From a virus (taxonomy: Duplodnaviria > Heunggongvirae > Uroviricota > Caudoviricetes): 12,984 nucleotides of DNA. Below the pieces are notes generated by a model. The model worked only from the letters and a program-made list of their open reading frames with translations, was not told where the DNA came from and did no database searches. The first letter of the stretch is position 1; the number at the start of each line of letters is the position of its first letter. Of this stretch, positions 1,336 to 3,307 are shown piece by piece. The DNA lies in the IMG/VR virus record IMGVR_UViG_2859799533_000002, one strand, 5' to 3'. A program made the position numbers and the translations under genes.

Positions 1336-1390
1336 GGTAATGCTGCCAACTTACTGATTTAGTGTATGATGGTGATTTTAAGGTGCTTGC

Positions 1391-1666
1391 GTGGTTTCCA
1401 TTTCCATCAGATGTCCTTCCTGCTCCGCGACTGAAGGCGTGGTGCGTAACGGCAAAAGCACTGCCGGACATCAGCGCTATCTCTGCTCTCATTGCCGTAA
1501 AACATGGCAACTACAGTTCACTTACACCGCCTCTCAGCCCGGTACGCACCAGAAAATCATTGATATGGCCATGAATGGCGTCGGATGTCGCGCCAGTGCA
1601 CGCATTATGGGCGTTGGCCTCAACACGGTTTTCCGTCACTTAAAAAACTCAGGCCGCAGTCGGTAA
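1391..1666 (+). CDS. insA: IS1 InsA (variant isoform)
   Basis: 91 aa, GTG start, CPSC...CSHC zinc-finger-like motif; near-identical to InsA of the other IS1 copies in the window. Confidence 0.85.
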
Positions 1667-1953
1667 CCTCGCGCATACAACCGGGCAGTGATGTGATTGT
1701 CTGCGCTGAAATGGACGAACAGTGGGGCTACGTCGGTGCTAAATCACGTCAGCGCTGGCTGTTTTACGCGTATGACAGGATACGGAGGACGGTTGCGGCG
1801 CACGTCTTCGGTGAACGCACTCTGGCCACACTGGAGCGTCTTCTGAGCCTGCTGTCGGCCTTTGAGGTCGTGGTATGGATGACGGATGGCTGGCCGCTGT
1901 ATGAATCACGCCTGAAGGGAAAGCTGCACGTTATCAGCAAGCGTTACACTCAG
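1585..1953 (+). pseudogene. insB: IS1 insB frame, 3'-truncated by IS2 insertion
   Basis: Frame matches InsB up to ...HVISKRYTQ, then diverges into IS2 terminal sequence ([11 protein letters not shown]...). Confidence 0.8.
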
Positions 1954-1964
1954 TGGATTTGCCC

Positions 1965-2870
1965 CTATATTTCCAGACATCTGTTATCACTTAACCCATT
2001 ACAAGCCCGCTGCCGCAGATATTCCCGTGGCGAGCGATAACCCAGCGCACTATGCGGATGCCATTCGTTATAATGTTCGAACGCCTCTGCAAGGTTCTTT
2101 GCTGCCGTTAACCCGTCTGGTTTGGGCATGATACTGATGTAGTCACGCTTTATCGTTTTCACGAAGCTCTCTGCTATTCCGTTACTCTCCGGACTCCGCA
2201 CCGCCGTGTTCTTCGGTTCAAGTCCCAACATCCGGGCGAACTGGCGTGTTTCATTAGCCCGGTAGCATGAACCATTATCCGTCAGCCACTCCACTGGAGA
2301 CGACGGAAGATCGTTGCCGAAGCGGCGTTCCACCGCTCCCAGCATGACGTCCTGTACTGTTTCACTGTTGAAGCCGCCGGTAGTCACCGCCCAGTGCAGT
2401 GCCTCACGATCACAGCAGTCCAGCGCGAACGTGACACGCAGTCTCTCTCCGTTATCACAGCAGAACTCGAACCCGTCAGAGCACCATCGCTGATTGCTTT
2501 CTTTCACGGCCACTCTGCCTGTATGTGCCCGTTTCGATGGCGGTACAGCAGGTTTTCGCTCAAGCAACAGCGCATTCTGGCGCATGATCCGGTAAACACG
2601 TTTGGCATTGATCGCAGGCATACCATCAAGTTCTGCCTGTCTGCGAAGCAGCGCCCATACCCGACGATAACCATACGTGGGCAGCTCTCCGATAACATGG
2701 TGTATACGGAGAAGCACATCCGTATCATCAGTGTGACGACTGCGGCGGCCATCCATCCAGTCATCGGTTCGTCTGAGAATGACGTGCAACTGCGCACGCG
2801 ACACCCGGAGACAACGGCTGACTAAGCTTACTCCCCATCCCCGGGCAATAAGGGCGCGTGCGCTATCCAC
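1965..2870 (-). CDS. insD: IS2 transposase InsD (orfB, DDE integrase-like)
   Basis: 301-aa ORF beginning [43 protein letters not shown]; recognised as IS2 InsD. Confidence 0.9.
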
Positions 2871-3193
2871 TTTTTTGCCCGTCCATATTCAACGGCTTCT
2901 TTGAGGAGTTCATTTTCCATCGTTTTCTTGCCGAGCAGGCGCTGGAGTTCTTTAATCTGCTTCATGGCGGCAGCAAGTTCAGAGGCAGGAACAACCTGTT
3001 CTCCGGCGGCCACAGCAGTAAGACTTCCTTCCTGGTATTGCTTACGCCAGAGAAATAACTGGCTGGCTGCTACACCATGTTGCCGGGCAACGAGGGAGAC
3101 CGTCATCCCCGGTTCAAAGCTCTGCTGAACAATTGCGATCTTTTCCTGTGTGGTACGCCGTCTGCGTTTCTCCGGCCCTAAGACATCAATCAT
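2828..3193 (-). CDS. insC: IS2 InsC (orfA, helix-turn-helix)
   Basis: The ORF-track ORF 2828-3238 contains [26 protein letters not shown]..., the known InsC N-terminus, 15 codons in, so the real start is at 3193 (121 aa). Overlaps insD as expected for the IS2 frameshift arrangement. Confidence 0.85.
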
Positions 3194-3284
3194 CTGTACT
3201 CCAATGACTAGTCTAAAAACTAGTATTAAGACTATCACTTATTTAAGTGATACTGGTTGTCTGGAGATTCAGGGGGCCAGTCTA

Positions 3285-3307
3285 ATCAGTAAGTTGGAGT
3301 CATTACC
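3285..3307 (+). mobile_element. IS1 right-terminal remnant (last 23 bp)
   Basis: ATCAGTAAGTTGGAGTCATTACC is identical to the last 23 bp of the IS1 copies ending at 7377 and 9351. Confidence 0.85.

Follow-up and report, generated by a model that had tools for sequence, protein, structure and literature searches.

Positions 1336 to 3307 of the 12,984-nucleotide stretch of viral DNA analyzed here (the window; Caudoviricetes record IMGVR_UViG_2859799533_000002 of IMG/VR) are occupied by a copy of the insertion sequence (IS) IS1 that is itself interrupted by IS2. This composite separates the remnants of an excisionase gene (xis) and a DNA methyltransferase gene, and the window as a whole is 100% identical to CP026866.1, a Shigella-type chromosome. 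In all likelihood, the composite is a layered scar left by IS elements in a lambdoid prophage, now dead, that sits at potC in an S. boydii-type Shigella chromosome, a scar built up in three steps that comprise the loss of the early region of the prophage, the insertion of IS2, and a small deletion beside IS2.

IS1 is numbered here over its full length of 768 nucleotides (nt), and the anatomy of the composite was set by reading the sequence and by comparison with the other IS copies in the window. The left part of the IS1 (1336-1953) differs from an intact copy at 6610-7377 by 4 mismatches (99.4% identity), and the transposase open reading frame (ORF) of the composite matches Pfam DDE_Tnp_IS1; insB is 44 codons shorter, with a tail encoded by IS2. 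Both of the 23-bp imperfect terminal repeats of IS1 are present, GGTAATGCTGCCAACTTACTGAT at 1336 and ATCAGTAAGTTGGAGTCATTACC at 3285. The IS2 nested between them begins with TGGATTTGCCCC (right inverted repeat [IRR]) and ends with GGGGGCCAGTCTA (left inverted repeat [IRL]). Its two ORFs lie on the minus strand (2828-3238 and 1965-2870) and match Pfam HTH_Tnp_1 (orfA) and rve (orfB); an E. coli element that bears the annotation IS3-family transposase shares 97.4% identity with it, and separate E. coli matches to the IS2 end carry the annotation IS2 family. The IS1 content of the window amounts to 641 bp, with nt 619 to 745 (127 bp) absent. The 5-mers flanking IS2, CTCAG (1949-1953) and ATCAG (3285-3289), do not form a 5-bp target duplication, nor do the outer 9-mers of the composite, CGTCGAGCG (1327-1335) and CGCCGACTG (3308-3316), form the 8- to 9-bp duplication of an IS1 insertion. 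This anatomy agrees in every particular with the original prediction, made from the letters of the window, which had described an IS2 of exactly 1331 bp inside IS1, the resumption of IS1 127 bp further on, a match at four of five positions between the 5-mers beside IS2, and unduplicated outer flanks that join truncated xis and methyltransferase genes on opposite strands.

The composite is an IS1 despite the absent duplication, which marks a rearrangement and is no argument against IS1 identity. The window has three further IS1 copies (6610-7377, 8584-9351, and 9781-10548), which are 768 bp each and carry perfect 8- to 9-bp duplications (GAAAATCT, GTATGGTCT, and GAACTTCTT), and because they keep theirs, the absence of one at the composite is a meaningful signal.

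The left flank of the composite (window 1-1335) is 99.9% identical to an int-xis module that 1,635 of 5,426 complete E. coli genomes carry beside potC, and the right flank (3308-4900) matches the methyltransferase-tRNA module of many lambdoid and Stx2 prophages. An undeleted relative was found by intersecting the E. coli hit lists of both flanks: E. coli 1070/13 (NZ_CP171474.1; locus L015) carries an apparently complete prophage at potC. This prophage starts with int, xis, an exonuclease gene, and dicB and continues through repressors and replication genes to hokD, after which come DUF968, RusA, Q, a hypothetical gene, the methyltransferase gene, three tRNAs, a SASA esterase gene, and a holin gene. 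Window position 3308 aligns to position 20104 of the 1070/13 locus, where the methyltransferase gene starts at 20063, and to position 14194 of an Stx2 phage, where it starts at 14153. The order and orientation of the two flanks in 1070/13 are those of the window, but the flanks are 16,172 bp apart. The same order, with a spacing of about 12 to 16 kb between xis and the methyltransferase gene, is seen in Stx2_EH2201 and in the ompW-site prophage of E. coli VL7S7. The interval missing from the window begins at the start of xis, takes in exo, dicB, the repressors, the replication genes, and Q, and closes where the methyltransferase gene starts. The junction thus has the features of an IS1-associated deletion, namely, a single IS, no duplication around it, and flanks that are collinear and separated in relatives. 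Because the flanks are collinear but 16,172 bp apart in an intact relative, the alignments are best read as the loss, marked by IS1, of the early region that lies between xis and the methyltransferase gene after Q, and this reading is supported. This is the deletion that had been proposed originally, with the proviso that flanks lying side by side in intact relatives would point to a simple insertion; in 1070/13 they do not lie side by side.

Related loci were collected by an exact-protein look-up of the truncated esterase encoded at 5105-6493, which gave ten loci on Shigella-type chromosomes, the window's own (L006) included. One of the sister loci, CP026795.1, belongs to S. boydii ATCC BAA-1247 (bioRxiv 10.1101/2023.08.24.554660). 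The layout potC, int, truncated xis, IS1::IS2, truncated methyltransferase gene, three tRNAs, and truncated esterase gene is found in all ten, and the outer IS1 junctions, which are identical in every one of them, are therefore ancestral to the clade. Neither outer junction occurs in the 5,426 complete E. coli genomes, where matches with 100% coverage to the outer-junction query, as to the query for the derived IS1/IS2 junction, consisted of two separate pieces joined by the search tool. At most 57% of window 1-6600 was present at a single place in any complete E. coli genome.

In nine of the ten loci, IS1 nt 1 to 750 are followed by IS2 and then by ATCAG and IS1 nt 751 to 768 (resuming ATCAGTAAG...). 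IS2 is thus a simple insertion in these nine sisters, flanked by perfect 5-bp copies of ATCAG (IS1 nt 746-750) as its target duplication, and removal of IS2 and its duplication restores a full IS1 of 768 bp. The window alone has a shortened IS1 before IS2 (Table 1). Its closest sister, L009 (CP026867.1), which has the IS1 copies at 6610 and 8584 in common with it, carries the extra 132 bp. Because the sisters have a simple IS2 insertion with the ATCAG duplication, the apparent 127-bp gap is really a loss of 132 bp (IS1 nt 619-750) that included the left copy of the duplication, and the state of the IS2 flanks in the window is secondary. The loss is recent and present only in the window's genome, where it occurred after the split from L009, and it is unrelated to, and later than, the large early-region deletion. 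The original prediction had treated the gap as part of a single scar. That 127 bp of IS1 are absent still stands, but the gap is a separate, later loss beside IS2, as nine of the ten loci have the full IS1.

Table 1. Features of the IS1::IS2 composite and of the prophage remnant around it; the columns give the feature, its window coordinates, the strand, and the basis of the assignment.
IS1 left part, nt 1-618 (left terminal repeat, insA, truncated insB)	1336..1953	+	identical to sister L009 over nt 1-618
Junction of the genome-specific 132-bp deletion (IS1 nt 619-750), abutting the IS2 IRR end	1953..1954		IS1 before IS2 is 618 bp in L006 versus 750 bp in nine sisters
Complete IS2, 1331 bp, orfA and orfB intact, nested in IS1	1954..3284	-	length, ORFs, Pfam, identity
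IS1 right terminal repeat, nt 746-768, 23 bp	3285..3307	+	begins with ATCAG, the copy of the 5-bp IS2 target duplication that survives
Excisionase (xis) remnant without its first 22 bp; left edge of the large deletion	1088..1335	-	window 1335 corresponds to L015 3931; intact xis extends to 3953
DNA N6/N4 methyltransferase remnant without its first 41 bp; right edge of the large deletion	3308..4325	+	Pfam N6_N4_Mtase; alignment to intact genes
Intact lambdoid integrase, 372 amino acids (aa), of a prophage adjoining potC	1..1119	-	Pfam Arm-DNA-bind_1 and Phage_integrase; potC immediately upstream in source genome
Three phage tRNA genes, Ile/Met-CAU, Arg-UCG, Arg-UCU	4366..4615	+	ARAGORN; same trio 3' of the methyltransferase gene in intact relatives
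SASA/DUF1737 esterase truncated by an IS600-like element from ~6475; right limit of the prophage remains	5105..6493	+	462 aa versus 617 aa in 1070/13

The anatomy of the composite, the ancestral states at its junctions, and the size of the missing interval can be read directly from these genomes. The history that we propose for them starts with an ancestor of all ten, in which IS1 would have become the junction of a deletion of roughly 16 kb (step 1) that took 41 bp from the start of the methyltransferase gene and the 5' end from xis, along with exo, dicB/kil, the immunity region, the replication genes, the nin region, and Q. This may have come about by intramolecular transposition of IS1, or IS1 may have hopped locally and the two copies may then have recombined; both routes would leave one IS1 without a target duplication, and since the end product is the same, the deletion is called "IS1-associated." In step 2, also ancestral, IS2 would have inserted into the right terminal repeat of IS1, at its inner edge, with ATCAG (nt 746-750) as the duplicated target. 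In step 3, which affected this genome only, an IS2-dependent adjacent deletion would have removed the 132 bp that separated the IRR end from a new target, CTCAG. This target may have been attacked directly within the same molecule, or a nearby new IS2 copy may have formed and then been recombined out. We infer that transposase took part in steps 1 and 3 and that step 1 preceded step 2.

It is also possible that the outer junction arose by IS1-IS1 recombination between two different prophages, as an inversion or translocation, with nothing deleted between the two modules, although we consider this unlikely. The right flank is only 95.6% identical to 1070/13 over 3308-4900 and 86.6% identical over 3308-6236, compared with 99.9% for int-xis; its best match (97.5%) is in a prophage at the ompW site and not at potC; and the chromosome downstream of the window's prophage is heavily rearranged, leading from IS600 copies through a P4-like island to cheA. 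No single phage record contained both flanks at high identity, the left flank matching two potC phages that have no methyltransferase gene and the right flank matching Stx2 phages that have other integrases. However, the order and orientation of the modules are exactly those of a single lambdoid prophage, the mosaicism of lambdoid phages explains the unequal identities, and the methyltransferase-tRNA module is present in two E. coli prophages at potC, those of 1070/13 and AF10 (98.3% identity in AF10). The reciprocal junctions of the putative inversion, in which IS1 would lead into CGTCGAGCGTTATCAGG... (also given as CGTCGAGCGTTATCAGGTAC) or ...TTAATCAACGCCGACTG (also given as GAGTTAATCAACGCCGACTG) would lead into IS1, were not found in viral contigs, a search outside which whole Shigella chromosomes lay.

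Collinearity and the two potC examples thus favor a single prophage as the probable source of both flanks. Against the loss of an early region from one prophage stands the ompW match, which leaves a single origin resting on that same collinearity and on 1070/13 and AF10. Moreover, no genome with the simple IS1 insertion in xis or in the methyltransferase gene that would represent the first step was found among the E. coli genomes or the viral contigs.

The smaller loss was probably an adjacent deletion mediated by IS2. The sequences show a simple-insertion ancestor, an IS2 that is still intact, a loss that extends from its exact terminus, and the disappearance of the duplication on that side. 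An IS2-mediated deletion is favored because the retained CTCAG fits the target bias of IS2 described below and because a loss ending at the exact IS2 terminus is expected for an IS-mediated event and not for slippage. The alternative is transposase-independent slippage or illegitimate recombination between two TCAG tetramers, with the IS2 boundary reached by chance. TCAG bounds the deleted segment on both sides (IS1 nt 615-618 and 747-750), which leaves the endpoint ambiguous by 4 bp, and a direct repeat of this kind would be used by replication slippage too. The loss is also in frame, and in the mutation-accumulation lines of E. coli, IS2 accounted for just 2 of 98 IS-associated deletions (PMC5009759). 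The repeat and this rarity count against the involvement of IS2, as does the fact that the deleted allele is known from one assembly and from no metagenome contig. However, slippage does not predict an endpoint that falls within the 4-bp ambiguity of the exact IS2 terminus; by a rough estimate, ~1 in 1,000 of the candidate repeat pairs in the composite would end there. The retained CTCAG is moreover among the most frequent IS2 target 5-mers, and IS-adjacent deletions recur in the sister genomes, all of which makes slippage improbable.

Less plausible still is an assembly or consensus error in the sole source assembly. The gap is found in one of the ten loci examined, and the derived IS1/IS2 junction was not found in the 5,426 complete E. 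coli genomes or in GTDB representative genomes or metagenome contigs, the last two of which gave just unrelated IS2 insertions at ACAATCAG. An error of this sort is nevertheless very unlikely, as the loss is clean, in frame, and abuts the exact end of IS2, with IS2 and IS1 otherwise perfect. Long-read errors take the form of small indels and not of precise 132-bp losses at a transposon terminus, and elsewhere the agreement between this assembly and its sisters is about 99.9%.

A simple IS1 insertion with a decayed 9-bp duplication can be rejected outright for the outer junction, even though CGTCGAGCG and CGCCGACTG agree at 6 of their 9 positions, which by our own calculation has a chance probability of about 1%. 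In intact relatives, each 9-mer is native to its own gene and the two lie 16 kb apart, and the flanks are different genes on opposite strands. The match may be a coincidence or a likeness between IS1 targets.

The target bias of IS2 was assessed using IS2 ends taken from 120 viral contigs (loci L019 to L138), which provided 104 distinct IRR-side flanks. TCAG ends 8 of these, against a background of 0.62% (P = 3e-7). It is the commonest tetramer at duplication positions 2 to 5 and occurs three times as CTCAG; its reverse complement is not enriched at IS2 flanks. The bias is orientation-specific, and the position-wise consensus of the target is roughly (G/C)-T-N-A-(G/C). The match at four of five positions between CTCAG and ATCAG probably reflects this preference. 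A second, independent hit on the inner edge of an IS1 repeat is present in E. coli VL7S7 (L016; NZ_CM177009.1; about 1660-3075), where an IS2 is flanked by an ATCAG duplication at the mirror-image position, in the IS1 left terminal repeat. With respect to ATCAGTAAGTTGG, this IS2 is oriented like that of the Shigella composite. We raise, tentatively and with some doubt, the possibility that IS2 has a weak orientation-specific preference for nTCAG beside its IRR and that ATCAG at the inner edge of both IS1 repeats is a recurrent landing site. A survey of 58 IS2 duplications in mutation-accumulation lines that gave no clear target logo speaks against such a preference (PMC5009759). If the suggestion is true, IS1 copies would act as traps for IS2 that seed nested elements and local deletions. 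The nTCAG bias and the repeated landing on the ATCAG of IS1 are only a mildly new lead.

Other IS-driven deletions can be seen close by. Two sisters (L003 and L011) have lost 662 bp (window 10549-11210) to the right of the IS1 at 9781-10548, together with the duplication on that side, and L009 has lost 3,607 bp (window 9352-12958) to the right of the IS1 at 8584-9351. Both losses begin exactly at the right ends of IS1, at places where the window keeps simple insertions and their duplications. IS1-adjacent deletions are therefore active in this clade and directly readable. The IS1 at 8584-9351 is itself a hybrid, with its first ~300 nt 100% identical to the copy at 9781-10548 and the rest matching the copy at 6610-7377, which suggests recombination or gene conversion between isoforms; it still has the perfect 9-bp duplication GTATGGTCT.

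In E. coli AF10 (L001; NZ_OZ546911.1; 4419-7626), a potC prophage of this type has an independent IS1 junction without a duplication, at which a truncated exonuclease gene is joined to the last 324 bp of the methyltransferase gene and roughly 15 kb of early region is gone. The IS1 there is of the IS1A isoform, unlike that of the Shigella locus, and the breakpoints are also different; the outcome in AF10 converges with that in Shigella.

What is left of the prophage is consistent with its assignment to the potC site, as potC, int, and xis are adjacent in the source genome and the remaining genes are in lambdoid order. The integrase is 99.9% identical to those of the potC-site prophages in the 1,635 E. 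coli genomes mentioned above. The remnant is incapable of excision, replication, and lysis. Gene callers report a 373-aa ORF (3204-4325) that starts inside the IRL end of IS2, reads in frame through the 23-bp IS1 repeat into the methyltransferase gene, and keeps the DPPY motif. Because no sigma-70-like promoter was found in 3100-3450, which covers the IS2 and IS1 ends before the methyltransferase remnant, this ORF is regarded as a pseudogene. The interval between the tRNAs and the esterase gene (4616-5104) contains no stx genes and resembles that of non-Stx lambdoid prophages; in the Stx2 phages, which among phages match the methyltransferase-tRNA module best, stx2AB is located exactly there. 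Two inverted copies of an IS600-like element of the IS3 family lie at 6475-8523 and 12609-12984, the first of them split by the IS1 at 6610-7377 (8-bp duplication GAAAATCT), an insertion confined to the lineage of L006 and L009. In the source genome, the region runs from potC to the P4-like island (AlpA, Bro-N) and on to cheA, an arrangement that implies a large IS-mediated rearrangement of the chromosome.

The locus offers a clean example of IS elements dismantling a Shigella prophage, with little meaning beyond bookkeeping. Three deletions that adjoin an IS, of 132 bp, 662 bp, and 3.6 kb, are directly readable within 13 kb because sister genomes preserve ancestral and derived alleles. The locus could be used as a lineage marker of the S. 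boydii-type clade and as a teaching case on missing target duplications.

What is seen here is ordinary IS-driven prophage decay in Shigella, of an already known kind and with no new type of element. IS1-associated deletions are familiar from E. coli, the classical gal deletions among them, and the Shigella locus resembles them in keeping one IS1, in lacking an 8- to 9-bp duplication, in having collinear flanks, and in the kilobase range of its loss. It differs from observed deletions of this type in that the event is reconstructed from E. coli relatives, in that the IS1 was later hit by IS2, and in that the simple-insertion intermediate was not found. In E. coli mutation-accumulation lines, IS-associated deletions mostly involve an existing and a new copy, with IS1 as a major and IS2 as a minor contributor (PMC5009759). 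A closer parallel to the 132-bp loss is IS150, a member of the IS3 family, which gives rise to frequent adjacent deletions of 14 bp to 49 kb from pre-existing insertions, without duplications (PMC11708052). As in the Lenski long-term lines of that study, a simple insertion has later lost flanking DNA from its exact terminus, the duplication included, and 132 bp is within the size range. Unlike the IS150 cases, this one involves IS2 and DNA lost from within another IS, and the 4-bp repeat leaves slippage as an alternative.

Cryptic lambdoid prophages eroded by IS elements are also known from E. coli K-12, where they include Rac, DLP12, and Qin. The Shigella remnant is like them in that it has been immobilized because its genes for excision, immunity, and replication were lost, while the integrase and late cargo (tRNAs and esterase) persist. 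It is unlike other cryptic prophages in that its breakpoints are specific to this Shigella clade and absent from the 5,426 E. coli genomes. With Stx2_EH2201 (LC567829.1), to which it is 94.5% identical over window 3308-4656 (methyltransferase and tRNA genes), the locus shares the module that runs from Q through a hypothetical gene and the methyltransferase gene to the tRNA trio and the esterase gene. Unlike the Stx2 phages, however, it has no stx between the tRNAs and the esterase gene, it has a different integrase and a different integration site, and its early and structural regions are gone.

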